Counted from the stretch's first letter, positions 3,946-41,091 are shown. The stretch is DNA of 64,000 bases from Methanothrix sp. (GCA_963682135.1 OY821645.1:928001-992000), one strand, 5' to 3'. A program made the numbers and translations. The notes: generated by a model not told the origin, from the sequence alone.

Positions 3946-4600
3946 GCGAATAAAGATAGCAGGAAGCAGCCTTATCGGAGTATTTGCCAAATGCACGGAG
4001 AAGGTTCTCCTCGTGCCGCAGGAAGTTGGCGAAGCCGATAGGCAAGTTCTCGAAGCCGGGCTGAAAGTGCCGGCGGTGCAGGTACTGGCCGGAGTAGGCT
4101 CCGTCTTGGGTTCCCTGGTCGCGGCCAACAGCAATGGCTTCGTGGTAACCCATCATGCCGGCAATGAAGAGATCGAGATTCTTCGCGAACATGGCCGGGT
4201 AGCTAGGCTGCCGGCCAGGATCAATGCCGCAGGCAATGTGATACTGGTCAACGACAGCGCTGCTCTGGTCCATGCGGAGCTGTCCGGCAGGGCTTGCGAA
4301 ACGATAGAGCAGACCCTGGGCGTGAAAGTGGAAAAAGGCACCATCGGCGGCCTCAAGACCGTGGGGATGGCGGGTGTCGCAACCAACAAAGGGCTTCTTG
4401 TGCATCCACGCGTCTCTGAAGAGGAGATAGCCGTCCTGGAGAGGCTCTTTGAGTTGCCTGTGGATGTGGGCACAGTGAACCTCGGCTCGCCGCTGGTGGG
4501 CTCAGGAGTGCTGGCCAACAGCCACGGTTACTTCGCAGGTGTTGGAACCTCCGGCCCGGAGCTGGGGCGCATCGAGGACGCGTTAGGCTTCCTGGTTTGA
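3935..4600 (+). CDS. eif6: Translation initiation factor 6 (aIF6)
   Basis: IGVFA, LVAANSNG, GTVNLGSPLVGSG, TSGPELGRIEDALG. Confidence 0.96.
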   Translation: MTDKRIKIAGSSLIGVFAKCTEKVLLVPQEVGEADRQVLEAGLKVPAVQVLAGVGSVLGSLVAANSNGFVVTHHAGNEEIEILREHGRVARLPARINAAGNVILVNDSAALVHAELSGRACETIEQTLGVKVEKGTIGGLKTVGMAGVATNKGLLVHPRVSEEEIAVLERLFELPVDVGTVNLGSPLVGSGVLANSHGYFAGVGTSGPELGRIEDALGFLV

Positions 4601-4649
4601 TGATTTCAGTAACATTCCAGTAATTTTTGAAAATAGTAGGGGTGGAATA

Positions 4650-4838
4650 GTGAGCAAATTCGAGATCAAAGGAAAGTACAAGGGAGGACTTGTCGGCAAG
4701 ACCTGGCTGCCCTTTAGCAAGGTTGTAGAGAGCCAGAACGAGAAGAATGCCGAAAATAAAGTCTATTCCCTCATGGGAAGCGAACACGGCCTGAAGAGAG
4801 GCCTCATCAAGATAGACGAGGTGTTGGCTGTTGAGTAG
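4650..4838 (+). CDS. rpl18a: 50S ribosomal protein L18Ae (LX/eL20)
   Basis: PFSKVVES.NEKNA..KVYSLMGSEHGLKR..IKI. Confidence 0.93.
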   Translation: MSKFEIKGKYKGGLVGKTWLPFSKVVESQNEKNAENKVYSLMGSEHGLKRGLIKIDEVLAVE

Positions 4839-5307
4839 CGCTCCTGGAGGCGAGGAGGAAGTCAGAAGACTCCTGGCCGCATATCAGCAGTATCAGGCTC
4901 AGGCGGACGGCATCATGCAGCAGCTAAACCTGACGCAGATCACCGCCGAGGGCCTGGAAAGGGCACTGATTGCAGTAGAGGCCCTGGACACGGCACAAGT
5001 AGGACAGGAGATTCTCGTCCCCATTGGATCGGGGTCTTTTATCCACGGAAACCTTGCCTCTAAGGAGAAAGTAGTCTTGAATGTAGGCGCGGGCGTCAGC
5101 ATCGAAAAGACCGCAGCCGAGGCCAAGGATATTCTGAAAGTAAGGAAGGCAGAGGTTCTTGAAGGATCAAAGAAGCTCAGTGAAGTGCTTGCCAAGATCG
5201 ATCAAGAGATGCAGAAGATCCAGGCCATAATGCAGCAATTTGAAGAGAGCGCAAATCAACATCAGCATCAACATCAACACGCCGCGGGGAGCGAAAGTAT
5301 TGTTTAG
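4831..5307 (+). CDS. pfdA: Prefoldin subunit alpha
   Basis: EILVPIGSGSFI and VLNVGAGVSIEK hairpins between coiled coils; QHQHQHQH tail. Confidence 0.95.
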   Translation: MSSAPGGEEEVRRLLAAYQQYQAQADGIMQQLNLTQITAEGLERALIAVEALDTAQVGQEILVPIGSGSFIHGNLASKEKVVLNVGAGVSIEKTAAEAKDILKVRKAEVLEGSKKLSEVLAKIDQEMQKIQAIMQQFEESANQHQHQHQHAAGSESIV

Positions 5308-6469
5308 TCGCTTCAAGGAGAAGCTTTCCGGCTTCAAAGAGGCATTGTCCTCCAAGATTGCCGAGAAGGTCTCCCAGGCCGAGAAGCTGGCCGGAAAGAA
5401 AGATGATGATAAAGAGATAAAAAGCCAGGCCAAAGCACTCCCTATGGCAGATAAGAATGCTGCCCAGGTGAAGTCTCCTGCGCCTGATGGGGCTTCATCT
5501 CGTGCCTCCCCAGCAAAGCCTTCTCTGTTTCCGGAAAAGACGACCGAAGCCAACAATAAGCCCAAGAGCCGTTTCTCCTTCCTGGAAAAGGCCAAGAGCC
5601 TGATATTTGAGCAGGAAGTAATCCTGGAAGAGAAGGATCTGGAGGAGCCCATGTGGGCCCTGGAGATGGCCCTCATGGAGAGCGACGTGGCCCTGCCCGT
5701 GGCGGAAGAGATAGTCAGAGAGGTCAAGAGCAATCTGGTGGGAATGAAGAGGAAGATCGGCGCGGACACAGGTGCCATCGCCGAGCAGTCCCTGCGAAAT
5801 GCTCTCTTGACGCTTCTTTCCAGGAACTATCTGGACTTTGACGAGTACATCAAGAGCAAAGAAAAGCCGGTCAAGATTCTCTTCGTTGGCGTGAACGGCA
5901 CGGGAAAGACGACCAGCATTGCCAAAGTTGCCAGGTATCTGATGAACCAGAGCTACTCCGTAGTCCTGGCGGCAGGCGATACCTTCCGAGCCGGAGCCAT
6001 TGAGCAGCTTGAGGTGCACGGCAATAGCCTGGGCCTAAAGGTCGTCAAGCACAAGACGGGCGGCGACCCGGCGGCTGTGATCTTTGATGCCGTGGAGTAT
6101 GCCAAGGCACACAACAAGGATGTAGTGCTGGCGGATACTGCCGGAAGGCTACATACCAACATCAATCTCATGGATCAAATGAGAAAGATCGTGCGCGTGA
6201 CAAAACCCGATCTGCTCATCTTCGTGGATGAAGCAATAGCCGGCAACGATGCTGTGGAGAGGGCGCGCCTCTTCAACGAGTCAGTGCCCATCGACGGCTC
6301 CATTCTCACCAAGACGGATGCCGACGCCAAAGGCGGCTCCGCAATCTCCATCGCCTACATCACAGGCAAGCCCGTGCTCTTTTTGGGCATAGGCCAGACC
6401 TATCCAGACCTGGTGAAGTTCGAGCCGGAGTGGCTGGTGGACAGGCTGATGGGAGAGGCGGAAACGTAG
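5300..6469 (+). CDS. ftsY: Signal recognition particle receptor FtsY
   Basis: [31 protein letters not shown] motifs; TTG start (MFSRFKEKL). Confidence 0.97.
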   Translation: MFSRFKEKLSGFKEALSSKIAEKVSQAEKLAGKKDDDKEIKSQAKALPMADKNAAQVKSPAPDGASSRASPAKPSLFPEKTTEANNKPKSRFSFLEKAKSLIFEQEVILEEKDLEEPMWALEMALMESDVALPVAEEIVREVKSNLVGMKRKIGADTGAIAEQSLRNALLTLLSRNYLDFDEYIKSKEKPVKILFVGVNGTGKTTSIAKVARYLMNQSYSVVLAAGDTFRAGAIEQLEVHGNSLGLKVVKHKTGGDPAAVIFDAVEYAKAHNKDVVLADTAGRLHTNINLMDQMRKIVRVTKPDLLIFVDEAIAGNDAVERARLFNESVPIDGSILTKTDADAKGGSAISIAYITGKPVLFLGIGQTYPDLVKFEPEWLVDRLMGEAET

Positions 6470-6485
6470 CGATTTATTCTTATTT

Positions 6486-7662
6486 TTAAGGTAGGACAAT
6501 CGCGGCATTAATGGCGTCCAAAGCCTCTTTATGGCGCCCAAGCTTATTGAGGGCAGTGGATTTGGTTGCCAAAGCTGATTTATCCTTAGGGTCTATTTTA
6601 ATAGTTTCCTCTGTACACTCAATGGCTAGCTCATATTTGCCCAATTCATTGAGTGCATTCCCTTTATTGGTCCAAGCTTGAGCGTACTGCGAGTTGATCT
6701 TTAGAGCCTGATCATATGCAACTATGGCCTCATCGTATATTGCCAATTGCGTCGAGAGCCAAACCTTTGTTATTCAAGGCTTGAGCATCCTTTGAATCGA
6801 TTTTTAAGGCTTGATCGTAGGCATCAATGGCTTCTTCATGCTTGCCTAGACCATCGAGAGCGCAGCCTTTGTTGCCCCAAGCTTCAGGGTATTGCGAATT
6901 GATCTTTAGAGCCTGATCATAAGCAATGATGGCTTCTTCGTTCTTGCCCAGACCATAGAGAGCATTGCCTTTGTTGTACCAAGCTTCTGCAAGCCGCGGA
7001 TTAATCTGGATGGCTCGATCGCAGGAAATGATGGCTTCCTCATGCTTGCTCTGGTAATTGAGAGCATTTCCTTTGTTATTCCAAGCTTCAGCAAACTGCG
7101 AATCGATCTGGATAGCTTGATCGAAGGCAATGATAGCTTGCTCATACTTGCCCAGTTCGATCAAAGCAGTGCCTTCATTGTAGCAGGCATCCTCAAACTG
7201 CGGATTGATCTTGATAGCTTGGTCGTAGGCGATGATGGCTTCTTCATACTTGCTTTGACCATAGAGAGCATTGCCTTTATTGTACCAGGCTTCAGCAAAC
7301 TGTGGATTGATTTTTATTGCCAGATCACAGGCATCAATAGCACCCTCATAGTTGTTGAGATCATTGAGAGCTACGCCTTTGCCATTCCATGCATCGGCGA
7401 GTTGCGGATCGATATTTATCGCTTCATCCCATGCTTGAATGGCTTCTTCATATTCTCCTTGGTCGTACCGTTCGATGCCCCGATTAAACCAATCATCAGC
7501 TGTCCCTTTGTCGAGCCCAATGTTCAGTGTTTGCGGCGCGAATGCTGAATTCCCGCCCCAGGCAAATGCGGGCATACAAAGAAGCATCCCGACAAGAAAG
7601 ATGATAGTTAGAATATATCTCGTTAGCAGAATATCACCACCCAATCCTTGTATCTTTATCAA
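6486..7662 (-). pseudogene. Secreted TPR-repeat protein split by a 1-nt frameshift near 6738
   Basis: Signal peptide, then ~10 34-aa TPR units (AWxNKGxAL...YEEAIxAYDQA); GGC AAT ATA CGA TGA in place of the expected GGC AAA TAC GAT GAG. Confidence 0.8.
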
Positions 7663-7721
7663 TACTTAAAGATTGATACAGATAGTCCATCCTGAACTCT
7701 CAGCGTAACCCGCGTGATACC

Positions 7722-8335
7722 ATGACCGAAGAGCCGTCAAGATTCTCTTCGTTGGTGTGAACGGAACTGGAATGACGACTAGCATTGCCAAGGTTGCCAG
7801 GTATCTGATGAACCGGAGCTACTCCGTTGTCCTGGCCGCGGGCGATACCTTCCGAGCCGGAGCCATTGAGCAGCTTGAGGTGCACGGCAATAGCCTGGGC
7901 CTCAAGGTCGTCAAGCACAAGACGGGCGGCGACCCGGCGGCTGTGATCTTCGATGCCGTGGAGTATGCCAAGGCACACAACAAGGATGTGGTGCTGGCGG
8001 ATACTGCCGGAAGGCTGCATACCAACATCAATCTCATGGATCAGATGAGAAAGATCGTGCGCGTGACCAAACCCGATCTGCTCATCTTCGTAGATGAAGC
8101 AATAGCCGGCAACGATGCCGTGGAGAGGGCGCGCCTCTTCAACGAGTCGGTGCCCATCGACGGCTCCATTCTCACCAAGACGGATGCCGACGCCAAGGGC
8201 GGCTCCGCGATCTCCATCGCCTACATCACAGGCAAGCCCGTGCTCTTTTTGGGCATAGGCCAGACCTATCCAGACCTGGTGAAGTTCGAGCCGGAGTGGC
8301 TGGTGGACAGGCTGATGGGAGAGGCGGAAGCGTAA
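7722..8335 (+). pseudogene. ftsY: Second copy of the ftsY 3' half (GTPase domain only); Walker A K->M and 1-nt deletion near its start
   Basis: Nearly identical to 5866-6469 (about 23 substitutions counted by eye); GTGMTT instead of GTGKTT. Confidence 0.9.
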
Positions 8336-8445
8336 AAACAAGCAGCGCCCGCGCCGCCCGGAGCCCTGGGCATGCTCGAAACCGACCGGGAAGAGGGCGG
8401 TCGCAACTACTCCTGCGATCCGCACCCCAATCCCCACACCATCAT

Positions 8446-9222
8446 CTAAGCTATCAATTCCGGCAAGATCGGATCACGATTGCTCCAAACTACGGGCACA
8501 ATCTCGTAGCTTCGAAGCGCTTCGATTACTGATGGTGAGACCGCTCTTTCCGAATCATTAAGAAAGGCATACGCTTTTGAATCAGGCTTTCGCACTTCTC
8601 TCGTATCCATCCAGGAGAAAGCTAGAGCTTGTGCTTCATTTTTATCCGGACGATTGATTGCCTGAAGGATTCTTTCCGGTGCCTGGCGATATTTGGGTAT
8701 CACTGCATCAAAGAGATGATCATAACCGCTTTTGCCCGCAAATTTTACATTTGGAATAAAGCGAATATAATTTTGTTCCAACCAGGCCACGAAATCTTCC
8801 AGGAATAGGCTGATAACATTGGGCTTGGCCAGATAGAATAGGTCGTTTACAGCCAGCATAGCCTGAATCAGGTTGTGCTTCTTTAGAGGAAAATTCTCTG
8901 GAGAGGCTGTGACCTGGAGCATTCTGCCTTCAACAAGCTTGACACCAAAGCCATTTAGAGTCATATTGAGCAGCTCCGACCTCTTTGGCGTGTCAAGATC
9001 GCATCCCGACTGCATGAGATCCTGCAGAATATATCCGTCATCTGTCATGAGATAGCTGCCGTTTTGTCTCCTGGCGTAGATCTGCAGATAATCGTTATGC
9101 CTATCAAGATATGGTGTAGTAATCTCGAACCAATCATCAACTCTGCGAAGGGTTATCTTGGCTCTGAGCCAGGATGTATAATCATCCATTAATTGTTGGA
9201 CTTCAGTGGTCGTAATAATCAA
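8446..9222 (-). CDS. DUF1828/DUF1829 domain protein (C-terminal PD-(D/E)XK-like region)
   Basis: EITTPYLDRHNDYLQIY..MTDDGY and GKSGYDHLFDAVIP...AFSWMDT...FLND motifs. Confidence 0.78.
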   Translation of the reverse strand: MIITTTEVQQLMDDYTSWLRAKITLRRVDDWFEITTPYLDRHNDYLQIYARRQNGSYLMTDDGYILQDLMQSGCDLDTPKRSELLNMTLNGFGVKLVEGRMLQVTASPENFPLKKHNLIQAMLAVNDLFYLAKPNVISLFLEDFVAWLEQNYIRFIPNVKFAGKSGYDHLFDAVIPKYRQAPERILQAINRPDKNEAQALAFSWMDTREVRKPDSKAYAFLNDSERAVSPSVIEALRSYEIVPVVWSNRDPILPELIA

Positions 9223-9661
9223 CCCCCTTCTGAATATCAGGTGGGCGAGTCACATTGCAGCATTTCATAAAGTCTTGAAGCGTCTGCCAGAGATCCGCGA
9301 TATTTGCAAATTGATTCGATTGCAGTGGCTCAGCAAAACGGTCTCCATATCCTTCCCGATATTTGTGAAGGTGGGGACAGGATATTTCCTGACCATCGGG
9401 ATTACGATGAGGCGGACCGTTCAGGTCCAGACGCATTAGAACTACAATGACCTTTGCCCGATTCTGATATGTTGCCTTAAGGCGGTTGATCCTTCCTCGA
9501 CTTATATCAAGCCAAAAAGATTCCCTCTGATCTTCAGAAATTAGAGGGACAACGATAGAACCGCCTACTCCAGGAAAATGGAACTCATCCTCATTGGCTC
9601 TATGTTTTGGCATAGCAATGAGCAAATCTGCCTCATTCTGGGTTAGATCAAGATCTGACAT
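9203..9661 (-). CDS. DUF6978-like protein, overlapping the DUF1828/1829 gene
   Basis: LTQNEADLLIAMPK...LMRLDLNGPPHRNPDG..ISCPHLHKYREGYGD. Confidence 0.72.
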   Translation of the reverse strand: MSDLDLTQNEADLLIAMPKHRANEDEFHFPGVGGSIVVPLISEDQRESFWLDISRGRINRLKATYQNRAKVIVVLMRLDLNGPPHRNPDGQEISCPHLHKYREGYGDRFAEPLQSNQFANIADLWQTLQDFMKCCNVTRPPDIQKGVDYYDH

Positions 9662-9776
9662 CAGTAAATGATATTAATTTGGTGAATATGGATATATCTT
9701 TTGGTGTGGCAAATTTCAGACGGCGAAATCCATCGAATTTTTTTGACCCTGCGCCCTTAAGACAGGAGTCAGCCAC

Positions 9777-10004
9777 GGCCTCAAGGTCGTCAAGCACAAA
9801 ACGGGCGGCGACCCGGCAGCTGTGATCTTTGATGTAGTGGAGACGGCGCGCCTCTTCAACTAGTCGGTGCCCATCGACGGCTCCATTCTCACCAAGACGG
9901 ATGCCGACGCCAAAGGCGGCTCTGCGATCTCCATCGCCTACATCACAGGCAAGCCCGTGCTCTTTTTGGGCATTGGCCGGACCTATCCGGACCTGGTGAA
10001 GTTC
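9777..10004 (+). pseudogene. ftsY: Third, more decayed ftsY 3' fragment (internal ~162-bp deletion, stop codon)
   Basis: Matches ftsY 6032-6097 joined to 6248-6421; AAC TAG replaces AAC GAG. Confidence 0.88.
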
Positions 10005-10127
10005 ACCCATGCCCAACTGGATTCCCGCGTCACCTGTGCAAGAGCTTGCCTGGTAAGTTTTGTCCATCCAGACGGCTCCACGCGCGCAGCCGGAACCAGA
10101 GGCGTGGACGCGGCGCAGGCGAGCGGC

Positions 10128-10245
10128 TGGCCCGCTGCCCCACAAATACCTTCAAGCCGGAGACTGCCCCGAACCTCGGCTAAACAGCCTTTGTGCGTCC
10201 TTTGTGGCTTTGTGCCTTTGTGGTTAGCGTAACTTTTAGGTTATA
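10128..10245. repeat. 118-bp direct repeat, copy 1 (four CTTTGTG units)
   Basis: Aligns with 11365-11482; the last ~78 bp differ at only 3 positions. Confidence 0.9.
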
Positions 10246-10511
10246 GTATAATAATAACTGCAAGCCGCCACAGTTTCCAAAAATCCCGCTGCCCGAAAAT
10301 CTGCCCTGCCGGGCCTCCCACCCCCTAGGCCGCTAGCCCACGCCGCCCGCGCTTGCCATGCGTGAGCCCGCACGCGCGTGCCCGTCGGGAGGCTGCCATC
10401 AACTCGACAGCATCACAATCCAGGTCAGTTTTGCAGGAGCGAAAATGCTTTATTCTCACGGCAAAGTATTCGGTAATATAAATTGAGATGCAGCCGAATG
10501 GAGTTTGGTAA

Positions 10512-10664
10512 ATGGCAAGGCAAATTAAGCTTGGAATGGTATTTGAGGGTGCTGAGGCTGAAGAATTCCTCCAGAACGAAAACAGCTCAGTTTTTACCTC
10601 CGAGCAGCTCGCTTTCTTCAAGAAAGCAAAGAGAATTTACAGAGCCAATCGCAATAAATTTTGA
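10512..10664 (+). CDS. 50-aa probable antitoxin (below the ORF-track size cutoff)
   Basis: MARQIKLGMVFEGAEAEEFLQNENSSVFTSEQLAFFKKAKRIYRANRNKF*; its TGA overlaps the GNAT ATG (TGATG). Confidence 0.7.
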   Translation: MARQIKLGMVFEGAEAEEFLQNENSSVFTSEQLAFFKKAKRIYRANRNKF

Positions 10665-11239
10665 TGACCGGAATTTTGGAAAGGGAACTCTCCATATTAT
10701 TGCTAAGTTCCAGATATGACCTTTCTCCGTTCGATTCCGGCAATGTTGAGCTAAACGCCTTTCTTAAGAATGATGCATTGCATGAGCAGGAGGAATTCCT
10801 GAGCAAAACGCATCTCTGTTTTTATAGGGACCGTGTTGCAGGCTTCATCTCTATGGCCGCAGCTTCCGTCCAGGTAAAAAAAGACAAGCTTGATCCGCGT
10901 CAAATCATCGATGACTGCGAATATCCTGCGTATCCTTGTATCTTAATTGCACGACTTGCAGTCGACAAAAAGCTTCAAGGACACGGCATAGGGAGTTATC
11001 TTCTTTCCCTTGCTATTGGTTATGTCATGGAGAGCCCCCTTGGATGCAGATACCTGGCAGTAGATCCAAAAGATGACGCCTTAGAGTTCTATGAAAAAAT
11101 CGGATTTAGATTTTGGACAAAGAGCCAGAGCAGGATGTTTTTGAATCTGCGAGATGTATCCGAACAAATGAAACTGAATGAATCACAGGATTTGTGGACA
11201 ACAAACGATAATTCAGAATTAAAATCGAACACAGGCTGA
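10664..11239 (+). CDS. GNAT acetyltransferase, TacT/AtaT-like toxin
   Basis: FDSGNVELNAFLK, YPCILIARLAVDKKLQGHGIG, FYEKIGF. Confidence 0.85.
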   Translation: MTGILERELSILLLSSRYDLSPFDSGNVELNAFLKNDALHEQEEFLSKTHLCFYRDRVAGFISMAAASVQVKKDKLDPRQIIDDCEYPAYPCILIARLAVDKKLQGHGIGSYLLSLAIGYVMESPLGCRYLAVDPKDDALEFYEKIGFRFWTKSQSRMFLNLRDVSEQMKLNESQDLWTTNDNSELKSNTG

Positions 11240-11364
11240 AGCATCAAATCTATCCCGCTCTATTTTGTCGTCCTCCCGGTCCCCCGATGTTGCCTGCTCA
11301 CATAGCCACCCTCGTGCCCGAGACGACGAAAGCGACACATCCTGGCGGCTGCCCAGGGCACGGA

Positions 11365-11482
11365 TGGCCCGCTGCCCCGCAATGATCGATAAACTGAAGA
11401 CTGGCCCGAACCTCTGCTAAACGGCCTTTGTGCGTCCTTTGTGGCTTTGTGCCTTTGTGGTTAGCGTAACTGTTAGGTTATA
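11365..11482. repeat. 118-bp direct repeat, copy 2
   Basis: See 10128-10245. Confidence 0.9.
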
Positions 11483-11596
11483 ATCGAACCGGTGAGCGTT
11501 ATTGAGTAAAGTTCTCCAAAAATACCGGGAAGGCCGGAAAGATCAGCAAATCCGCCTTTCCCTGCCTACCGAATAAGCCTAGCACCTTTGATATTA

Positions 11597-12394
11597 TCAA
11601 TCCAATATCTTAATCGCTTCTTCCGCCGTCTTGCCCTTGTTGACAATAGCCGCAATGGCCATGGTCATCTTCACGGGATCCTTATGCTGGAAGACATTCC
11701 TGCCGATGGCAACGCCGCGCGCGCCAGCCTGCAAGGCTCCGTCAATCATTTGCAGGAATTCCATGTCCGTCTCGGTCTTGGGCCCGCCGGCGATGACCAC
11801 AGGCACCGGACAGCCATCCACCACTCGCCGGAAGGAATCGATATCTCCGGTGTAGTTGGTCTTGATTATATCCGCGCCAAGCTCCGCGCCGGCCCGGGCG
11901 GCGTGAGCCACGACCTCCACATCATTGGGATTGACGATGGCTTTGCCGCGCGGGTACATCATGGCTATGAGCGGCATGCCCCAGAAGTCACAGCGCTCGC
12001 TGACACAGCCCATTATGCTGAGCTGATCTGACTCGGTCTCAGAGCCGATATTGATGTGAATCGATACTGCATCTGCTCCCATCTTCAGGCACTCCTCCAC
12101 CAGGCAGACCTGTACCTTGTTATTGGGATCGGGGCCAAGGGAGGTTGAGGCGCTCATATGCACAATCAGACCGACATCTCGACCGTAACCGCGATGTCCA
12201 TGGCGGACCATTCCCTTTTGCTGAAGAACGGCATTGGCTCCGCCCTTGGCCACCTTGTTTACCATCTCTGGCAGGTCGACCAATCCCTTGATGGGGCCGA
12301 CGGATATGCCGTGGTCCAGTGGAATTATGACTGTGTTCCCGCTGTCTCTGTCCATTATCCTTTCAATTCGAACTCTCTTGCCAATCTCACCCAA
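11597..12394 (-). CDS. aroA': 2-amino-3,7-dideoxy-D-threo-hept-6-ulosonate (ADH) synthase, DhnA-type class I aldolase
   Basis: [42 protein letters not shown]. Confidence 0.88.
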
Positions 12395-12569
12395 ATTGTA
12401 TCATCCCGTAAATGTTAACATGTCACATGCTAGCACGTATCATATTTAAGTGTTGCGATTAGCTGATTGCAGGCATCAAGAAGACGATAGGTTGATGATG
12501 ATGACTACGATTATGATATAGAATGGCCCGGCGCGAGGAAAATAATTGAAATAAAAAATTGCGATTCAG

Positions 12570-12962
12570 CTAGCTGCAACCGCAGTCGCTGTCATCGTGT
12601 CCGCATCCGCATTCGCCGTGGTCGTGATCGCAACTGCTGTGATCATGATCACAGCTATCGACATTGGCACAGGAACCACAGCCGGAGATTTCATCCTCTG
12701 GGCCCCTAATGATGAACCCGGTTCCCCTATCGTCGTCCACGTAATCAATTATGGTCTCGCTGAGCAGTTCAGTATCCTGTGGGCTCATGTAGACCTTTAC
12801 GCCCCGGCTCTCATAAACTTTGTCACCAGCCTCCTCGTTTCCCAGAGCCAGACCATAATTCGCGCCGGTAGCATCAATAGCTGCCAGGAACATCCTGATC
12901 ACTTTGCCTTCTACCAGGCTATGCTTTATCATATTAGCTGCCGCCTCTGTAATCTCTATCAT
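12570..12962 (-). CDS. HesB/IscA-like protein with Cys/His/Asp-rich tail
   Basis: MIEITEAA..., YGLAL, IDYVDD.RGTGF; tail CGSCANVDSCDHDHSSCDHDHGECGCGHDDSDCGCS. Confidence 0.75.
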   Translation of the reverse strand: MIEITEAAANMIKHSLVEGKVIRMFLAAIDATGANYGLALGNEEAGDKVYESRGVKVYMSPQDTELLSETIIDYVDDDRGTGFIIRGPEDEISGCGSCANVDSCDHDHSSCDHDHGECGCGHDDSDCGCS

Positions 12963-13294
12963 GAACTGCACATCCAAATCATATCACCACAAACTCGTAT
13001 TTATAGATATTATCTTTTCAGACTCCGCCAAAAGGGAGATGGAGGATTTGGAGCTGGAGCTGAAATATCTCTTCATCGAGCACCTTGAGAAGACGCATAG
13101 AATGTTGATATTTGCCATAAAAAGGATAAGGGGGCGATCCGCAATTAAACGCAGGGCAGCCAGTCAACGCTGATGGCTTCGCATGTGGAATTGCCCCAGA
13201 GCTGAATGAACTTTGCAGACGATGCCAACCCGACCAGCGCAAATATCAGTACCGCCAACATAAGCATTCTCTTCACTATTCTTCCCTCCACCCT

Positions 13295-15850: not shown

Positions 15851-15967
15851 CCGGAGAAGTTGATTCAAAAGAGATGAAAAGATCTGAAGCCTTGCGACCC
15901 CCAGGCCTCGTCTCTATCTTCTATTTTGGACGGAAAGGGCCATGTGTAGTCCTGAAAACTCAGGACT

Positions 15968-17065
15968 ATGTATAATGAAGAGAACCACAAGTTACTTAAG
16001 TGCCTGAGTCATGCTAAAGAATTGGATCATGGGAGGGATGAGATAGCGGTGTCTCTAAGAGTTGCAGGTATTGTTTTATTTTTTATTTTGGCTTTGTTCA
16101 TACAGCCGTTTGCTTGTAATCAGGCAGCAGGTCAATCTGCTACACAAGCAGAAATAAATGCATCTCAAAACGCAGGAGATCTTGGATATAAATTAATTAA
16201 TGATCCAATTACCGGAGGCCGCTACTATCTTATCGGCTCAAAATACCGAGAGTCTGTTGCCAGCGAGAAAAAAATTGGACCAACAAATGCAGCCGAATCA
16301 ATAATTAATGCAACGGCAACGAAAGACATTATTCCAACAAAGAACCTATGTGAATCGTGTGTTTTTTATATAAATTCCGCAGAAGAGCTTAGAATAAGTC
16401 TTAATAATACTACTTGCATTAAAAAGATAATTTTATTAGAGAGTGGAAAATATAATGGTCAATTTTATATAGGTAATAATATAAGTAATGTAACAATTAA
16501 GCCTGACCCTAAAAATAGAGGTTCTGTGATATTAGATGCTATGAATGCCGATTTCAATTTTGCTTTAGAAAATACATCGAATGTTTCGATCAATGGCCTA
16601 ACGCTTAAGAATGGGAATAATGGTATTTTATTGGAAAAAGTTAAAAATTGTCTAGTTGATGGTAATAAAATTTATGGTTTCAAATTTAATGGTATTTTTG
16701 CAGATCATAGTGTTCAAAATAATAGTATAACAAATAACATTATTAGTTCAGATAAGTATCAAAATGATGTCTCTGGAATAACCCTAAGCGAATCAAGAGA
16801 TGTAGTAATCGGAGGGAATGAGATTCTTGTTGGTTATAAAAATCCATATTCTAATATAAATGGTAATAATTACATAGATATTTTATTAAATAAAAGCGTT
16901 GGAAACATCATAAATTTTAATGGAATCGGCATCATTACTGAAGATGCCATAAATTGCGGAGTTACATGCGATGGAGATGCACCAAAGTGCGCCTGTGAAT
17001 CTGTAGAAGATGGATGTCAACATTTTATAGGAATAAGCAATAACAGTTGGAGCTTTATATGCTAG
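15968..17065 (+). CDS. Membrane-anchored right-handed beta-helix (NosD/CASH-like) protein, AT-rich
   Basis: N-terminal TM; NVSINGLTLKNG.NGILLE...NNSITNNII repeats. Confidence 0.72.
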   Translation: MYNEENHKLLKCLSHAKELDHGRDEIAVSLRVAGIVLFFILALFIQPFACNQAAGQSATQAEINASQNAGDLGYKLINDPITGGRYYLIGSKYRESVASEKKIGPTNAAESIINATATKDIIPTKNLCESCVFYINSAEELRISLNNTTCIKKIILLESGKYNGQFYIGNNISNVTIKPDPKNRGSVILDAMNADFNFALENTSNVSINGLTLKNGNNGILLEKVKNCLVDGNKIYGFKFNGIFADHSVQNNSITNNIISSDKYQNDVSGITLSESRDVVIGGNEILVGYKNPYSNINGNNYIDILLNKSVGNIINFNGIGIITEDAINCGVTCDGDAPKCACESVEDGCQHFIGISNNSWSFIC

Positions 17066-18693
17066 AGAAAAGCTCAACGGAATTATCAGCGATTTTGATC
17101 TTGGTCTTCATTTTTTCAGCAATTTCGATTGCTGATTCAATTACTATTCCAAGTGATAAGAACATACCGGATGTGCCTAAAGATCTAAAAGATTTCGTAT
17201 ATTCAGGGCCAAGTGGCGAATCTAAATCAGTTACATATTCTAGTGGAAGTGGTGCCCGAGAAAAGACGCAATATATCCAGGTACCAGAGAATCCTATCCA
17301 AATAACGAAATCTATAATCCCCTTGAGAGAAAATTACCATACCGGAGATACAGTAGCTATATTTGTAGAAGTTAAAAATATGGGGACAGAATTAAAAAAA
17401 ATAGATATAAAAGAATATGTGGACAAAGGATTAGATATCATAAACATATCAAAAAACGCATACATATTGAAAGAACTTGACGAAATTGCAGACTATAAGA
17501 GCGAATCAAATAGCTGTTATTACTTAGATATGTATAATTATACACATAGATCTAATAATAGTATTCACGCCGACGATCTGCTTGACATAAAGATAGATTG
17601 TGGAGATTACTTATTCAATCAAAATAATACTGAAAGCAACCATAATAATATTACAAAATTTATTAATGAGAATTTCGACATTAATTGGTCAAACATTACA
17701 GTTGATAAATCCTCAGATGAAAAAATTCTCCGCATAATGAATGATAGAGATCCATCTGAAGAGATGAGTGTGACTGTAGATGAGGAAAGTGGATATGGAA
17801 AAATGCAATATAATAATAAAACGTATAAATTTAGGATTAATTCACACAACATATATAAACTGTCCAACGAGTTTGATATATATATAAATAAGCTTGATAG
17901 GAAAGATAGAATAGTATATTGGTACTATGCAAAATTAAAAAAAATTGGTGATTTTGACGCCTCAACAATATTTAGATATTGGGTCGAAGAAAACAGTCAC
18001 TTTCTCGATGTAGATAAAATCCTCACGATAGGAGTAGTCAGACCAACACTTAATGTTGATGTAGATATAAATAGATTGAATTTATTAAAAAAAGAAGATG
18101 CAGTTAATATAACATATAAAATTACTTATATGGGCCCACCAATGAGTAATACAGTCAAATTGGATTTTGTTAAGAAATCATACTATGATGAAATCCAGCG
18201 ATATGGCCCAGATGTATATGTATATCCAAGGGATATACATGTGGGAGAGCCCTTTACTAAAACTATAAAAATATCATATCCCAATGAAGGAGAGTATTTC
18301 TCTCCGGAAATAATTATTAACGGGGAAATCTTTCCCTTTACGAAAGAGAAGATCGTGGTTGAGACAAGGTTTGGGAAATATGCAAATCTAGTAGCTCTGA
18401 TTTTGGCAATAGTGTTTTTTTTCATAGGTGATCTTTCTATGAAATTAAACTATTTAGCCAATAGTAGAGATGTTTCCAACTATTCAAATCCAAAAGATTT
18501 CATTCGAGAAAGATCCAAGAAAATTGAAAGAACGTGTCAAGGTATAATTATTTTGTTTATTATATTACTTATACCCATAATATATTTTACTTCATCGTCT
18601 TTCTACTGGATATTAGTATCTTTAATAATTTGTGCTGTAATATTAATAGCAATATCCTTATATTTTAAGTTAGTAACATCTGTACTTAAATAA
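17059..18693 (+). CDS. Secreted Ig-like (DUF11/BatD-like) protein with three C-terminal TM helices, AT-rich
   Basis: Signal peptide; PIQITKSI...GDTVAIFVEVKNMG; hydrophobic C-terminal segments. Confidence 0.65.
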   Translation: MLEKSSTELSAILILVFIFSAISIADSITIPSDKNIPDVPKDLKDFVYSGPSGESKSVTYSSGSGAREKTQYIQVPENPIQITKSIIPLRENYHTGDTVAIFVEVKNMGTELKKIDIKEYVDKGLDIINISKNAYILKELDEIADYKSESNSCYYLDMYNYTHRSNNSIHADDLLDIKIDCGDYLFNQNNTESNHNNITKFINENFDINWSNITVDKSSDEKILRIMNDRDPSEEMSVTVDEESGYGKMQYNNKTYKFRINSHNIYKLSNEFDIYINKLDRKDRIVYWYYAKLKKIGDFDASTIFRYWVEENSHFLDVDKILTIGVVRPTLNVDVDINRLNLLKKEDAVNITYKITYMGPPMSNTVKLDFVKKSYYDEIQRYGPDVYVYPRDIHVGEPFTKTIKISYPNEGEYFSPEIIINGEIFPFTKEKIVVETRFGKYANLVALILAIVFFFIGDLSMKLNYLANSRDVSNYSNPKDFIRERSKKIERTCQGIIILFIILLIPIIYFTSSSFYWILVSLIICAVILIAISLYFKLVTSVLK

Positions 18694-18724
18694 TATCATG
18701 TTTTGAAGAGATAATAGATCATCA

Positions 18725-20401
18725 TTATCTCTTCACATCAATCCTAATCAATCCTAATTCCTTCAGCCGCTCTTCTATCCTTTTATCGACAATCTCAGAG
18801 ATATCACGATCCCCATAAATTCTAGCCGTAGACTTCTTTTCGTTTTCCAGAAATGAAACGTCTTTTTGGAAGATGCGCAAAGGATTGATGAAGAAAGGCT
18901 TTTCGCCATTTCTAAGCCTATTTCTGGCCTCATTCAGCTCGAAGACAAAGCCACTTGTCTTGCTGGAACCATCCAGGCCAAAGAAGAACGTCTTGAGAGC
19001 CTCCTTGGAGGCAGCAGTGAGCCTTACTTGATCCGCCTTTCCATCCATTCCGCTCTTTTCCTTTTCCTTGCCTTCATAAAACAGATCCTCTGGCCGTTGG
19101 CTAATATACTGCAAGGCAAGGGTAATTACTTTGCAGAATCTGCTCTCCAGAGTATTATCCTTATGGTAAGCTTTCGGATCGCTTCCGTAGGGATTTCGAA
19201 GTAGTATCAGAATTTCGTTTTCCCCTTCACCCATCTTTCGCATCGGCCATATATTCAAAGCCGCAATGCCTGTCTCTTTGGAGAGCGCCTCTCTTATCTT
19301 CTCGGAATCAATAAAACCTCGGCAGAAGACCATGGCAAAGTCCGCCTTTTCCGGTGAGCAGCCAAAGAGCCTTCCTTCCTCGCTCAAGGCTTTTTTAACC
19401 AGAGCCATCTCAGGATTTTTGCTTCTCGGCATTGATGCATAAAGTGGCACATATATAGGCGGTCTGCGCAGTCCCCCAGAGGAGTGCTGCGCTATAGCCT
19501 GGCTGGGTGGAATCTCATCTGGATAGTCTCGTGCCGCTACAATGGGTTGCATGATCCTATGAATAAAGCGATTGGCAGAGGCAAAATCCTTTCCAAAATT
19601 CTTCAATAGAATTTCATTATCAACGATGATTACACCATTGGCTCCGCTGCCTTTTGTTAGAAGATCGTAAAGAGCACTTATTGCGGCCAGGTTCCTTCTA
19701 CCTTCCTTCGAAAATTGGGCTTTATCGGCAAAATCACCCAGTTCAGTCAATACTCCCAAGACAAATACAGGATAGTCCGCTTTGCCTTCATTTCTGATGT
19801 GGTTGATGATCGGATTAATAAAGCCGGTTCCAGTTCCCCCGCCAAAGGAAACTACAAAGAGGATGCCGTCGCATTCTCCATCTCCCAGTGTTGTGAAGTT
19901 TCTTATGACATTCCAGGCGCTATCGAAGATGGGATTGGGAGCCTGGCTGAAAGATGCGCTGCTATTGGCCCCATTTCCTCCCAATGATTCGATCATCTCT
20001 TTGTTCATGGTTTTGGCGACGATGGCCTGGATCTCCTTATCCGTATCAAAAATTTCAAATATGGCCTTGAGATATTGGGCATCTCTAACAAAGCCCTGTT
20101 TCTTTACATCGTAGCCGTATTTTTCCCGGACAATTCTATGAACCTCGCAGCCATCGGCTACAACATCATGTGGAATATAAAAGCAGGGGTAGCACCCCTC
20201 ATTCAGATCTCCGAAGAAATGTTGGATATTCTTGGCATCGTTTTTATCGGCTTCAAGCCAGATGCCCTGTATCATGCCGGGAGAGATATATTGCGCATCA
20301 GTTATTCGAGAAAGAAGCTGGAAATCCAGATCCTCATTTCCCAAGAACTCCTGGGTGATTTTACCCCCGGCTCCGCCAATTCCGACAATGCATAGTCTCA
20401 T
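18725..20401 (-). CDS. Divergent tubulin/FtsZ-superfamily GTPase (CetZ-like N-terminus), 558 aa
   Basis: MRLCIVGIGGAGGKI (T1), SFGGGTGTG (T4 signature), IIVDNEIL; true start at 20401 overlaps the upstream stop (ATGA). Confidence 0.88.
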   Translation of the reverse strand: MRLCIVGIGGAGGKITQEFLGNEDLDFQLLSRITDAQYISPGMIQGIWLEADKNDAKNIQHFFGDLNEGCYPCFYIPHDVVADGCEVHRIVREKYGYDVKKQGFVRDAQYLKAIFEIFDTDKEIQAIVAKTMNKEMIESLGGNGANSSASFSQAPNPIFDSAWNVIRNFTTLGDGECDGILFVVSFGGGTGTGFINPIINHIRNEGKADYPVFVLGVLTELGDFADKAQFSKEGRRNLAAISALYDLLTKGSGANGVIIVDNEILLKNFGKDFASANRFIHRIMQPIVAARDYPDEIPPSQAIAQHSSGGLRRPPIYVPLYASMPRSKNPEMALVKKALSEEGRLFGCSPEKADFAMVFCRGFIDSEKIREALSKETGIAALNIWPMRKMGEGENEILILLRNPYGSDPKAYHKDNTLESRFCKVITLALQYISQRPEDLFYEGKEKEKSGMDGKADQVRLTAASKEALKTFFFGLDGSSKTSGFVFELNEARNRLRNGEKPFFINPLRIFQKDVSFLENEKKSTARIYGDRDISEIVDKRIEERLKELGLIRIDVKR

Positions 20402-21042
20402 CTTCTCGCCTCCCAGGCCTCTTTGTAAATAGGCATGACAAGCACTCCGGCCGATACAACCAAAAGCATCAGGCTCAGAAGCTCGACAGGCTGCGAATGA
20501 ACCGGATAAATTGTGCCGATATAGGCTGATAACAATACTGATGTGCATAAGGCAATGACTGTCATGCCGATCATCTTCTTCGTGGTTTTAGAGATGGAAT
20601 AAAAGCTATACAATTCCGTTAGCTTTAAATCTCTGTGATCTTGGGGGAGCTTGTCAAGAAATAGAATTATCGTCGCTGCAATACCTGCCACAAGAAGGCC
20701 GAAAATAGCAAATCCCAATGTACCGGAGGCCAATTCGGCTATATCCATGTAACTGATGGGAAGGACGGTTGGGACCAGCAGGTAAAGATAAGCAACGGCT
20801 ACCGTGAGCATAATCCACGCTGCCAGTGCCAGGGCTGTGAAGTTTGATCCCTGCGGGACAGTCATCTCTTTATAAAAGATGGCCTTGGAGACCTGCTTTT
20901 TATGCTGCAGGATGGCCACAAGCTTGTGGACCCGTTTTAGGTTATTAATGTGCAAAATTGCTGCAAGGATCAGCAATAATGCCAGCAGCAACGTGCCTGC
21001 GGGAAATAGGCTATTCATTACAGTTGGGATATCAATTGCCAT
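20398..21042 (-). CDS. Integral membrane protein (4-5 TM), unknown function
   Basis: Several long hydrophobic segments; coupled to both neighbours. Confidence 0.8.
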   Translation of the reverse strand: MAIDIPTVMNSLFPAGTLLLALLLILAAILHINNLKRVHKLVAILQHKKQVSKAIFYKEMTVPQGSNFTALALAAWIMLTVAVAYLYLLVPTVLPISYMDIAELASGTLGFAIFGLLVAGIAATIILFLDKLPQDHRDLKLTELYSFYSISKTTKKMIGMTVIALCTSVLLSAYIGTIYPVHSQPVELLSLMLLVVSAGVLVMPIYKEAWEARR

Positions 21043-21044
21043 TC

Positions 21045-22586
21045 CTAGCCCCTCCTCAGCATCTTGAGAACTTTGCCGGCAAAACTTCCGTCTGATTTGT
21101 CCCTGCTTTCTTGTTTATTGCTCTTCTTGTTCCCTGCTTTACCTGATGCACTTTCATGAGACTCAATTCCTTTCTTGAGCTTTCTTTCCACGAAAAAGCT
21201 TCCTAATATTATCAGGAAGAGCATTGGCACCAAATTCATGACCATTACTGGATTGTAGATGCTGTAGGGCACTATCTTGGCATTTATCAGCGTCCCTGTT
21301 TCCTCCATGGCATCCTTGCCGCTCTGATCATATTCCGAGTACTTAACTCTGTAATAAAAATTCTGCCCGGCATCTGTAACCCGGAAGGGTTTGGTGTCAT
21401 TGAAGTTCACCTCGACGGGTTCAGGTCCTATTCTGACCGTCTTCGTCTCCACTATATTCCATTCATTGTTACCCGTCCTGGTGCTCAGAGTAAATGCTAC
21501 GTCGTACTTTTCAGGGTTCAGATTCTTTGCTCTCAGATTGAATCCGTACTTCTCCCACCAGTAGTAATTCTCGCTGGTAGAGATGAAGCCCAGCTTATCC
21601 ACAGAGAGCTTTGCACCTTTTCGGATATTGGGTCCTCTTAATGGATCTGCAGGATCTTTGCGGACAAAATCAATCCCATCATCATAGCTGTAGTAGTAGG
21701 TAAAGTTCTTGCCTGCATCAGCCTCTTTGAAGAATCCATATTCATTTGCCTTGAAGCTCACAGGGCCTGGCTTGATGTTCAGTGTTTCATTTTGCAGCTC
21801 AATGCCGTTCTCATCAAGGATGTGCAGTGTCACATTGAGCAAATCTCCATCGGCATCGGCAATATCTGCCTTGTACTCGATAGGATCATTATACCTCACA
21901 AGGCCTGGTGGGGTAACATTGAAATTGCTCATGACCGGCAGGCTATTGGTAACATTGAAGACCAGCTGCGAATAGTAGGGTGGCTTCAGCCCGGAGTAGT
22001 CCGACGTGCTCCATTTATTGACACCGTCGCTCATATTCACCCGCACTTTGACTTCACCCACATTCTTTAGGTAGGCAAAAGAGGGCAGCATGCCCCAGAT
22101 TCTGTAGGTGGTGTTGGTCTTCTCATCGTACTCGTTGGTCTGAATCTTCTCCGGCCAGGAGTTGATGCGTTCGTACTTATCCGACCCTGGCTCCTTTACC
22201 TCCAGATAAAGATCGAGCATACGGCGCATCTCCAGAGGATTATTATTGGTGGCAACCGTTATGATCTCCAGAGGCTGGTTTCGGCTGACCGTGGTATTGT
22301 TTCCTTTGTAGTACATGAGCACAGTGGGCATCACGTATTCTTCGCTAGTTATTGGGTCCTTCCACAGTATGGTCCGCAACTCTTCGTACTTAGCCGGTTT
22401 ATTCTTCTTTGCGTCATCCACGGCTTTGATCAATCTATCGACATCAACCGACTTACTGCCGCCTCCGCCCCCACCACCACCGCTGCCGCCTGACGATCCG
22501 GCCGATTGTGTGGCCGGGCCCACAACGTTTTGCACCGACAGCAGCAAGGCAAATACGATCAGCATGGATACGAGTTTACCATTCAT
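21045..22586 (-). CDS. Secreted, C-terminally membrane-anchored Ig-like repeat protein
   Basis: Signal peptide, Gly/Ser linker, beta-rich domains, TM (LVPMLFLIILGSFFV), basic cytoplasmic tail. Confidence 0.82.
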   Translation of the reverse strand: MNGKLVSMLIVFALLLSVQNVVGPATQSAGSSGGSGGGGGGGGSKSVDVDRLIKAVDDAKKNKPAKYEELRTILWKDPITSEEYVMPTVLMYYKGNNTTVSRNQPLEIITVATNNNPLEMRRMLDLYLEVKEPGSDKYERINSWPEKIQTNEYDEKTNTTYRIWGMLPSFAYLKNVGEVKVRVNMSDGVNKWSTSDYSGLKPPYYSQLVFNVTNSLPVMSNFNVTPPGLVRYNDPIEYKADIADADGDLLNVTLHILDENGIELQNETLNIKPGPVSFKANEYGFFKEADAGKNFTYYYSYDDGIDFVRKDPADPLRGPNIRKGAKLSVDKLGFISTSENYYWWEKYGFNLRAKNLNPEKYDVAFTLSTRTGNNEWNIVETKTVRIGPEPVEVNFNDTKPFRVTDAGQNFYYRVKYSEYDQSGKDAMEETGTLINAKIVPYSIYNPVMVMNLVPMLFLIILGSFFVERKLKKGIESHESASGKAGNKKSNKQESRDKSDGSFAGKVLKMLRRG

Positions 22587-39872: not shown

Positions 39873-41091
39873 GTCAACTACCCACGACTGAAGTCGTGGG
39901 CTTGCGGCTCCGCAAAAAGTCGGGCCACGATGGGTATATTGACTGATGCCCGTGCAGCTATATTACGAGCTGCAACTATGTCAGCTGGATCAGAGAAACC
40001 ACAACAGACACAGCAAAAATCATCCCTAGTAGGACGGTTGGATCGAGAGATATGATGGCAGATCGGACATTCTTGGGAAGTATAGGCAGGATCAATATAC
40101 GCAACTGGCACACCAGCAATGGCTGCCTTGTAGCCAATAAACTGCCTAAGCTGATCAAAACTCCAAGAGCTATGTCTATGTCTCTGAACCTTGGTTTGGA
40201 CCGTTGTCCTCTCTCGGATGCCTTTGAGATCTTCAAGGGCGATCAAAGAAGAGGTGTCTATGGCTTTCTTGACAAGCTTCTTGGAAATGCAATGATTGGT
40301 GTCTCTCTTGAACCTAGCCTCATGACCAGAAAGTTTCTTAAGATGTTTTTTGGCACTATCCGTACCACAACTCTGAAGATCCGCTTTGAGATTATCAAGT
40401 TTGGCTCTGGTCTTGTCGATCTTTTTGCAAGAGAAAGTTTCTCCAGTAGAATCTACGACGATGTTCTTAATTCCGAGATCGACACCAAGAACATTCGTTG
40501 GAACGATGAGGGCCGGTTCAGGAACCTCAACGACGACACAAAGATAGAACTCATTGTTTCTGAAAATCAAATCAGCCTGTCCCCTGATTCGATCCAATCT
40601 TGGAGCATGATAATCACAAATCTTAACGGGAGCCTTGATTCTACCATGAACAGTCAACAACGAAACCGTGTCAAGCCCTTTCCAAGAGAGAATTCTTTGG
40701 TCGTAGACGACGGCTCCATTTGGTGCAAATGTTGGTTTGATAGACTTATCTCGTTTATAGGCTTCACATGCTTTAGAAATGGCTCTAACTGCCATTTGGG
40801 AGGATATACCAAACTTCTCACGAATATCATGATAAACAATGGGCTGCAACTTGATTTTATTGGCTGTATGCATTTGAAAAGCAATTTCAGCCACATAGTT
40901 GCAAGCAGCATTGAACTGATGCATAGTCTCATGCAGAGCCTTCGCTTGCTCAGGTTCAACTACAACTTTTACTTTGAGAGTTTGCATCATGATAGTATAG
41001 ACATATATGATCTATGGCATAAATACTTAACGTCCGGGAGTGTCCAATTCCTCCCACGACTAAAGTCGTGGGCCTCCTCGGACGAACGGTC
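39873..41091 (-). mobile_element. IS200/IS605-family IS1341-type element (tnpB only)
   Basis: Subterminal hairpins CCCACGAC-ttta-GTCGTGGG (left end) and CCCACGAC-ttca-GTCGTGGG (right end); right end terminates in TGAC; no tnpA. Confidence 0.88.
39878..40990 (-). CDS. tnpB: RNA-guided endonuclease TnpB
   Basis: RuvC triad GVDLG / IALEDL / ADIVAARNI intact; TSQECPIC..CVCCG zinc ribbon. Confidence 0.95.
   Translation of the reverse strand: MMQTLKVKVVVEPEQAKALHETMHQFNAACNYVAEIAFQMHTANKIKLQPIVYHDIREKFGISSQMAVRAISKACEAYKRDKSIKPTFAPNGAVVYDQRILSWKGLDTVSLLTVHGRIKAPVKICDYHAPRLDRIRGQADLIFRNNEFYLCVVVEVPEPALIVPTNVLGVDLGIKNIVVDSTGETFSCKKIDKTRAKLDNLKADLQSCGTDSAKKHLKKLSGHEARFKRDTNHCISKKLVKKAIDTSSLIALEDLKGIRERTTVQTKVQRHRHSSWSFDQLRQFIGYKAAIAGVPVAYIDPAYTSQECPICHHISRSNRPTRDDFCCVCCGFSDPADIVAARNIAARASVNIPIVARLFAEPQAHDFSRG

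Follow-up and report, generated by a model that had tools for sequence, protein, structure and literature searches.

A stacked array of ftsY ends in a Methanothrix genome

In a closed Methanothrix genome, the essential gene ftsY is followed by a stack of its own displaced 3' ends, separated from one another by different cargo genes. The window analysed here is a stretch of 64,000 nucleotides (nt) covering bases 928001-992000 of this single-contig genome (GCA_963682135.1, OY821645.1; 3,043,341 bases, 3.04 Mb), whose marker-gene completeness is 99.87%; positions are counted from the first base of the window unless marked as genome positions. The newest insertion, a cassette with a TPR-repeat gene, arrived together with its own ftsY end, turning the working gene into a chimera and pushing the resident end downstream. 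Related genomes preserve an intermediate and an empty state of the same site, and about nine other genes in the genome bear the same kind of scar. The interval behind ftsY may be a hotspot that gains small cassettes through host homologous recombination, without a dedicated recombinase, a reading to which we give an even chance.

The intact gene (5240-6469, plus strand, 409 amino acids (aa)) matches the Pfam families SRP54 and SRP54_N, and with TIGR00064, the FtsY equivalog model, it reaches 321 bits (cut-off 260.7). Upstream of it stand the genes of eIF6, L18Ae and prefoldin alpha (Pfam), and the relatives of the ftsY product in public genomes all belong to Methanothrix, Methanosaeta or Methanotrichaceae. 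Searching the whole genome with this gene by BLASTN returned the gene itself and three pieces only, all just downstream: 7728-8334 (96.05% over 608 nt, 23 mismatches, 1 gap), 9771-9842 (90.3% over 72 nt) and 9831-10004 (94.3% over 174 nt). The first piece is copy 2 (7728-8335, plus strand), a 3' segment that lacks the 5' part of the gene, corresponds to 5861-6469 and has lost 1 nt at its start. A three-way alignment places the beginning of its homology to the intact gene, copy 1, at 5861/7728 and the end precisely at the stop codon. Read in frame, copies 1 and 2 are set apart by 22 substitutions and the 1-nt deletion; 19 substitutions are synonymous and three are non-synonymous (K223M in the P-loop, Q237R and T409A).

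The other two pieces make up copy 3 (9771-10004, plus strand), an older displaced end, which starts at the equivalent of 6026 by BLASTN and alignment. It reads TAG at 9861-9863 where the gene reads GAG, has lost 162 nt in frame between the 12-nt repeats GATGCYGTGGAG (6086-6097 and 6248-6259 in the gene, overlapping at 9831-9842 in the copy), and is truncated at 10004, 48 nt short of the stop. Decay grows with distance from the intact gene. A preliminary description of this DNA, made from the sequence alone, had reported three ftsY copies with different cargo, about 23 differing sites with three amino acid changes between the first two, and a stop codon and a deletion of about 162 bp between microhomologies in the third; genome BLASTN, alignment and Pfam agree on the layout, and each of these details holds.

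The structure observed at ftsY is real and well supported. Contigs (Logan) of run X19 from study P12 and of runs X21 and X22 from study P13 show 0 differences to the window and bridge every junction; the assembly may derive from one of these runs, but two studies are represented. A contig of 6434-7870, present in all three runs, joins the end of copy 1, the TPR gene and the start of copy 2. The stretch 8300-9891, from the end of copy 2 through the second cargo, PDC-M24, to the start of copy 3, is whole in X19 and X21 and present as shorter pieces in X22. The remaining bridging contigs cover 9944-10216, 10205-11453 (X19, X21), and then 11442 onward. Depth over the unique parts is even, at 49.7, 50.2, 49.7 and 48.1 in X19 and at 210.6, 216.7, 228.7 and 239.8 in X21, which argues against strung-together strain versions, since a mixture of strains would divide the depth. 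The preliminary description had named a chimeric strain assembly as a danger to its reading; instead, the junctions are bridged at equal depth in three runs from two studies.

Origin of the newest cassette and its ftsY end

Copies 1 and 2 do not differ as a gene and its decaying duplicate would. Their ratio of non-synonymous to synonymous substitution rates (dN/dS) is 0.046, and neutral decay of one copy since duplication (pairwise omega 0.5) would leave three or fewer non-synonymous changes among 22 with P = 7e-6, upholding the early impression that copy 2 is no neutrally decaying duplicate. Polarising the differences against 29 related ftsY genes separates them into two stretches. Derived states at 5899-5974 sit in copy 2 and include K223M, a change of the P-loop lysine that should abolish GTPase activity in signal recognition particle (SRP) GTPases. 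Derived states at 6037-6464 sit in copy 1 and comprise ten synonymous changes, mostly third-position A, and the last codon, giving the working gene 11 private changes.

A single breakpoint fits 19 of the 22 sites, a fit equalled at any breakpoint by 622 of 100,000 label permutations. The state switches between 5974 and 6037, which places the crossover of the TPR event in the interval 5975-6036 (plus strand), identical in copies 1 and 2 (7841-7902 in the latter). The derived stretches and the TPR cargo together form one continuous chromosomal block that begins in copy 1 at about 5975-6036 and reaches 7841-7902 in copy 2, and outside this block the 5' part of copy 1 and the 3' part of copy 2 resemble the resident allele. 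In its 433-nt 3' part, copy 2 shows no more than one derived change, whereas decay alongside the 10 synonymous changes of copy 1 would have produced about 41. Moreover, in a tree of the ftsY 3' part the branch of copy 2 is near zero, and that of copy 1 is long and private.

By these comparisons, ftsY up to about 5975-6036 is resident and 6037-6469 arrived with the TPR cassette; in copy 2, the first 110-170 nt or so were imported and the remainder is the displaced resident end. The polarised differences and the long private branch mark the working ftsY as a chimera whose end came along with the TPR gene, and the nearly unchanged displaced end makes the event a recent one. That the newest insertion supplied a replacement 3' end and pushed the resident one downstream had been proposed from the layout, and the polarised block, the single switch and the tree bear it out. 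In the TPR event, the imported block spans parts of both repeats, so the two are not both target-derived; in the older events, decay blurs this distinction.

Earlier states, varied cargo and the order of events

Comparison of 80 related ftsY loci reveals the site in other states. A DeoC/LacD-family aldolase gene (11597-12394, minus strand; Pfam) forms the conserved right-hand border of the variable interval and lies within the covered flank at 12 of the 80 loci, 154-8386 nt behind ftsY. At locus L012, just 154 nt separate ftsY from this gene, representing the empty site. Locus L008 shows an intermediate, with ftsY followed by a GC-rich methylase remnant, PDC-M24B and PDC-M24A, a 450-nt ftsY fragment and the DeoC gene, and with neither the TPR nor the GNAT genes of the window. 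The fragment runs from the equivalent of 6026 to the stop, undeleted and 91.8% identical to its own gene, and the window from copy 2 through the second cargo into copy 3 is collinear with this locus.

The cargo that follows ftsY differs greatly from one relative to another, often with a defence-like character, so the arrangement is not a fixed one. A methylase/AAA_21/ResIII cluster (Pfam) follows ftsY at locus L003, where the PDC-M24 unit also lies behind the gene. At two more distant loci (L053 and L076, with blocks 92% identical), HicA and a partner separate ftsY from a duplicate of its end, 210-221 nt long, whose start lies near the equivalent of 6272. Other loci have helicase-HNH proteins, Mrr_N, ParE, a metallophosphatase, IS21 and others in this interval. 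The long repeats, 608 nt (96%) in the window, 450 nt in L008 and 210-221 nt in L053 and L076, are single in relatives, with L012 and L008 providing the single-copy states. Three independent events in the genus (TPR, PDC-M24 and HicAB) confirm the suggestion of repeated insertions at the 3' end of ftsY. Among small open reading frames (ORFs) behind ftsY in a further relative is a family-B DNA polymerase gene (L006:18008-19960, minus strand), which may be part of a self-replicating mobile element.

The PDC-M24 event predates the TPR event, because decay is plain in both copy 3 and its counterpart at L008, and the newest cassette is the proximal one. The GNAT pair at the far end has a different history. 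A 122-nt direct repeat (88%; left copy 10124-10245, right copy 11361-11482, both plus strand, by self-comparison) brackets it, and the core of this repeat, which consists of four CCTTTGTG-like units, has about 25 occurrences across the genome and is also found at other places in relatives. Dispersed repeats of the CCTTTGTG type sometimes stand in inverted pairs 15-40 nt apart. Because the GNAT block truncates the end of copy 3, and the counterpart of copy 3 is complete in L008, which lacks the pair, the block is a separate event, later than the PDC-M24 event and not tied to an ftsY copy. The most distal cargo is thus not the oldest. No empty site for the block was found in relatives, and 10005-11595 has no nucleotide similarity in the 80 related loci. 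The age-ordered array of the preliminary description consequently survives for the ftsY copies, newest proximal and decaying with distance; its third member, the GNAT cargo counted as following copy 3, has to be removed from the series, having its own repeats, cutting copy 3 and being absent from L008.

Cargo genes

The first cargo is a TPR-repeat gene with an N-terminal hydrophobic leader (6486-7662, minus strand; Pfam), now in two ORFs, 6730-7662 and 6486-6746. A frameshift near 6730-6746, in the stretch 6722-6746, lies between 102-nt repeat units, where one spacing is 103 nt among spacings of 102. As contigs of three runs contain this frameshift with 0 differences, the gene may already be a pseudogene. 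At two loci of more distant Methanothrix (L029, 1723-2325; L030, 11168-11914), a TPR gene whose protein is 37-42% identical is convergent directly on ftsY. In some lineages this adjacency may be native, and the cassette could stem from it.

The second cargo consists of PDC-M24B (DUF1828/DUF1829; 8446-9222, minus strand; PADLOC E 1.7e-101) and PDC-M24A (DUF6978; 9203-9661, minus strand; PADLOC E 7.3e-56), both also assigned by Pfam. PADLOC lists them as a candidate defence pair, and the mobile unit spans about 8441-9755. The same unit, 94% identical, stands at an unrelated site in another genome (L113) between 51-nt direct repeats, and in the family 19 of 105 genomes encode a homolog of the DUF1829 protein. 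Between copy 2 and this unit, a GC-rich remnant of the 5' end of a DNA methyltransferase gene (8336-8440, plus strand) was recognised by tblastn of the L003 methylase ORF, which matches the window at 64% over 22 aa (E 4.6e-8) and L008 at 63% over 71 aa (E 3.6e-23); nucleotide identity of the remnant is 76.6% over 107 nt. Homologs of restriction (R) and modification (M) genes together, for which Furuta et al. (2010) screened, are not present in the cargo, which holds the methylase remnant only.

The inserts measure 1.26 kb (TPR) and 1.4 kb (PDC-M24), and Pfam finds only TPR, DUF1828/1829 and DUF6978 in them. Both sets of genes lie on the minus strand, convergent on ftsY, each with its own upstream region. 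The third cargo (10512-11239, plus strand; Pfam) comprises a small ORF (10512-10664) overlapping a GNAT acetyltransferase gene (10661-11239), a layout that suggests a GNAT toxin-antitoxin pair; PADLOC gave no match for this pair.

The same scar at other genes

The phenomenon is not special to ftsY. Genome self-comparison combined with Pfam identified about nine other genes with the same scar, mostly around toxin-antitoxin cargo. The gene of a Cas4-like nuclease exists in three copies, with duplicated segments of 459 nt (96.7%) and 193 nt (90.7%) and with a MazF pair and a 543-aa protein without a named family as cargo. At moaA, the 533-nt duplicate accompanies a second GNAT pair of the genome; at alaS, a 367-nt duplicate accompanies an HSDR_N protein; and at a GT2 gene, the duplicate reaches 713 nt, with PIN as cargo. 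Further cases are an EVE-domain gene (228 nt; small ORFs, one DUF7557-like), argininosuccinate lyase (265 nt; an RHH protein), and two unnamed genes, of 158 aa (456 nt; ParE) and 211 aa (413 nt; NERD and MazF). Pairwise dN/dS at the scar genes and copy 3 is 0.05-0.45 in 10 of 11 comparisons and 2.5 in the eleventh, whose frame is doubtful. In the genus, the alaS end is found in 52 of 59 genomes, with a second match in 12, which in 7 of the 12 lies downstream on the same contig; the pattern of a moaA end fragment is seen in 2 genomes.

The genome also contains arrays of 150-400-nt repeats at 0.9-2.6 kb spacing, with toxin-antitoxin genes between them (HepT/MNT, PIN, ParE, MazE, HicA), at genome positions 591-597 kb, 1436-1439 kb, 2476-2485 kb and 2812-2818 kb (L090, L091, L092 and L085). 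These may result from the same stacking process on a non-coding handle. In the window, two neighbouring molybdopterin oxidoreductase genes (55594-56953 and 58598-59971; formate-dehydrogenase-like, 916 and 917 aa) share 74% nucleotide identity and are ordinary tandem paralogues, not a gene-end scar.

Proposed insertion through host recombination

The proposed pathway would begin with donor DNA from a related strain, containing the 3' part of ftsY, stop codon included, and then the donor's downstream gene or genes. Homology would end at the stop codon because related strains diverge from there. The donor piece would be circular, being either a self-closed fragment or a circle excised from an earlier scar by recombination between its repeats. 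Pairing with the resident ftsY, it would insert by one Campbell-type crossover, presumably dependent on RadA, producing an intact chimeric ftsY with the imported end, the cargo, and a 5'-truncated segment that ends in the displaced resident end. The left border of that segment would fall wherever the donor piece began. Repetition at the intact gene would stack cassettes with the newest adjoining it, and the fragments would decay afterwards and could be struck by later events, such as the GNAT block. Toxin-antitoxin and defence cargo would probably be retained since its loss is costly, a form of addiction with which the predominance of such cargo agrees.

Several observations weigh against this proposal. 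The donor of the TPR gene was not found: 6470-7720 has no nucleotide similarity in the 80 related loci, and relatives of the protein in metagenomes are at most 62% identical, and none of 80 such loci contains ftsY. A clean switch is visible for one event only, and its position was found after inspection of the data, for which the permutation test allows by admitting any breakpoint. At the older alaS and moaA scars (24 and 18 outgroups, respectively), the fragments hold most of the derived changes and look decayed, and a single switch is unreadable. Decay also blurs the origin of the L008 fragment, in which 12 of 36 differences show the fragment's state in 0 of 28 relatives; in the allele tree, the fragment does not group with its own gene, but the length of its decayed branch makes this placement little informative. 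The crossover interval 5975-6036 includes the left border of copy 3 at 6026, which could hint at a preferred site. The pattern fits equally a two-crossover transfer of a ready-made scar from another strain, which the data cannot separate from insertion here. Finally, contigs of X19, X21 and X22 contain no circle and no cassette-skipping joint, a neutral result, since such contigs drop rare variants.

A broader version of the circle proposal, which we advance tentatively, treats conserved gene ends as portable attachment handles: recombination between repeats would free a circle of cargo and one gene end, able to enter any genome with that gene. If this is true, toxin-antitoxin and defence modules circulate in Methanothrix populations and stack into arrays, and host recombination alone, with addictive cargo holding the cassettes in place, yields an integron-like outcome.

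An alternative, in our judgement rather unlikely, retains the homologous anchor and the absence of a recombinase but starts from a linear donor. One end would pair with ftsY and the other would be joined illegitimately to the sister chromosome upstream of the anchor, through homology-facilitated illegitimate recombination or template switching in break repair, giving a duplication without a circle. The evidence for import and against a recombinase applies equally to this route, and the data do not distinguish between it and the circle model. An illegitimate join would also explain the 8 of 9 matching bases at the junction from TPR cargo to fragment (GAAGAGCCG versus GAAAAGCCG), yet most other junctions are without microhomology, and the route requires a second chromosome copy. 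Homology-facilitated illegitimate recombination was proposed for serial displacement arrays, but as described there it places foreign DNA next to the anchor at the expense of recipient DNA and does not duplicate the anchor (PMC5361080).

Searches for a recombinase and for insertion sites

A site-specific integrase, since lost or acting in trans, could likewise have left the array as remnants of integrative elements whose att sites hold the end of the target gene. Such elements keep the gene intact by a replacement end, as here, and a fixed site would suit both the border of copy 3 at 6026 within the TPR crossover interval and the shared start (query 402-409) of several alaS fragments in the genus, although these may be one inherited event. 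We nevertheless consider this origin quite improbable. The window has no tyrosine-recombinase (PF00589) or serine-recombinase match, and its Pfam searches were equally negative, so that the early statement that no integrase is present there stands. Among the other 43 window ORFs scanned with Pfam, the only mobility-type match is an IS605 OrfB/TnpB-like gene with a Cas12f1-like TNB domain (39878-40990, minus strand). The genome contains one uninterrupted PF00589 match outside the window (genome positions 912421-912903), three further matches with stops, and no serine recombinase. The 139 ORFs behind ftsY in 24 relatives yielded an IS21 pair and a family-B polymerase, each once, but neither a tyrosine nor a serine recombinase.

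The borders may also speak against a fixed integrase site. Left borders of the duplicated segment vary among equivalents of 5861, 6026 and about 6272, but the crossover itself was mapped for one event only, to the interval that includes 6026. No motif is common to the borders of 11 events, the commonest 6-mer occurring in 3 of them; the duplicated arms reach 713 nt at about ten unrelated genes, and the cassettes are just 0.6-1.9 kb long. An integron was considered and rejected because its defining features were looked for and not found: there is no integrase, the cassettes are not oriented for a common promoter, and the 122-nt repeat folds into an attC-type structure no better than shuffled sequence (z -1.14, -0.79, +0.39 and +0.30). 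An Rfam search of 4000-13000 at E up to 1 returned nothing.

It is very improbable that the ftsY end was duplicated locally in tandem within this lineage and that decay, gene conversion and exchange of the intervening sequence followed. Such an origin would explain why copies 1 and 2 are mutually closest (96.3%, versus 95.0% and 94.6% to the nearest other genome). The dN/dS of 0.046 and the nearly unchanged displaced part of copy 2, set against 11 private changes in the working gene, contradict it; gene conversion wipes out differences and would not leave the remaining ones synonymous, and the units carry different cargo. The chance that alternative strain versions of the region were strung together in assembly is negligible, for although 600-nt repeats are hard for short-read assembly and 13 of 80 related contigs stop less than 1 kb behind ftsY, single contigs span the junctions at 0 differences and equal depth in two studies. 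Those early stops may reflect repeats or strain variation that break short-read assemblies at this spot.

Farther along the window, 15900-26700 forms a low-GC island (27-36%, versus about 52% around it) that encodes six large proteins of 214-1377 aa without a Pfam match and may be foreign or serve defence.

Comparison with known systems

Phage 21 and e14 insert at icd with an incoming 3' end that has diverged synonymously, keeping the target intact and leaving the old end as a downstream pseudogene. These elements encode an integrase and use one fixed core, whereas at ftsY the searches described above found no integrase, the borders vary, and the homology extends over about 600-700 nt.

With integrons, the ftsY array shares cassettes of 0.6-1.9 kb in series at one entry point, the newest proximal. 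It differs from them in having no IntI, attI, attC or common promoter, and most of its cargo is convergent on ftsY. The term integron-like, used in the preliminary description, is therefore an analogy only, with no IntI-type or other integrase, attC-like element or common junction motif behind it.

C-terminal displacement arrays were reportedly treated by Jackson and colleagues in 2009. Those at rhs, contact-dependent inhibition (CDI) and type VI secretion system (T6SS) effector-immunity loci were compared with integrons by the authors themselves, who found no integrase and proposed homology-anchored recombination (Kirchberger et al. 2017, PMC5361080). They share with ftsY a conserved 5' part and serially displaced 3' ends with cargo, the newest adjoining the gene. 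Their ends are different toxin domains with immunity genes, which gives them a clear selective logic; at ftsY, the ends are 90-96% identical housekeeping sequence that only provides homology, with cargo that has no relation to the gene.

The closest parallel, insertion with long target duplication, has been known from genome comparisons since 2000 and is said to have been the subject of work by Nobusato and colleagues in that year. A later survey identified it for bacterial restriction-modification (R-M) genes by genome comparison, with the mechanism not established (Furuta, Abe and Kobayashi 2010, PMC2853133). In that survey, the inserts are shorter than 20 kb, lack integrase and transposase, and are flanked by direct repeats of tens to more than 400 bp that are single in relatives; its authors proposed a cycle of insertion, repeat use and release, and they state that their screen retained no archaeal case (PMC2853133). 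In a literature search, none of the titles and abstracts listed describes an archaeal long target duplication.

The ftsY array is an archaeal, serial variant of this kind of insertion. The two share a short insert, the absence of a mobility gene, long repeats of more than 30 bp, frequent use of a gene's 3' end, and selfish or defence cargo. The host here is a methanogen and the cargo is TPR, PDC-M24 and toxin-antitoxin genes, as against bacterial R-M genes in the survey. Additionally, insertions are stacked three deep at one essential gene, and the arm of the newest event is imported, with a mappable crossover, instead of being a copy of the target.

Methanogens have few integrases, and the array suggests a route by which toxin-antitoxin and defence genes spread among them. 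There is also a practical side, as such repeats break short-read assemblies at housekeeping genes and displaced ends risk mis-annotation as extra gene fragments. Because the TPR event is young, imported and resident DNA can be separated base by base and the crossover placed within 62 nt, and the same site supplies an older event with intermediate and empty states in relatives, next to about nine parallel scars in the genome. Long target duplication, a descriptive category in bacteria, thereby becomes a testable model in an archaeon, one that combines a gene-end handle with host recombination.

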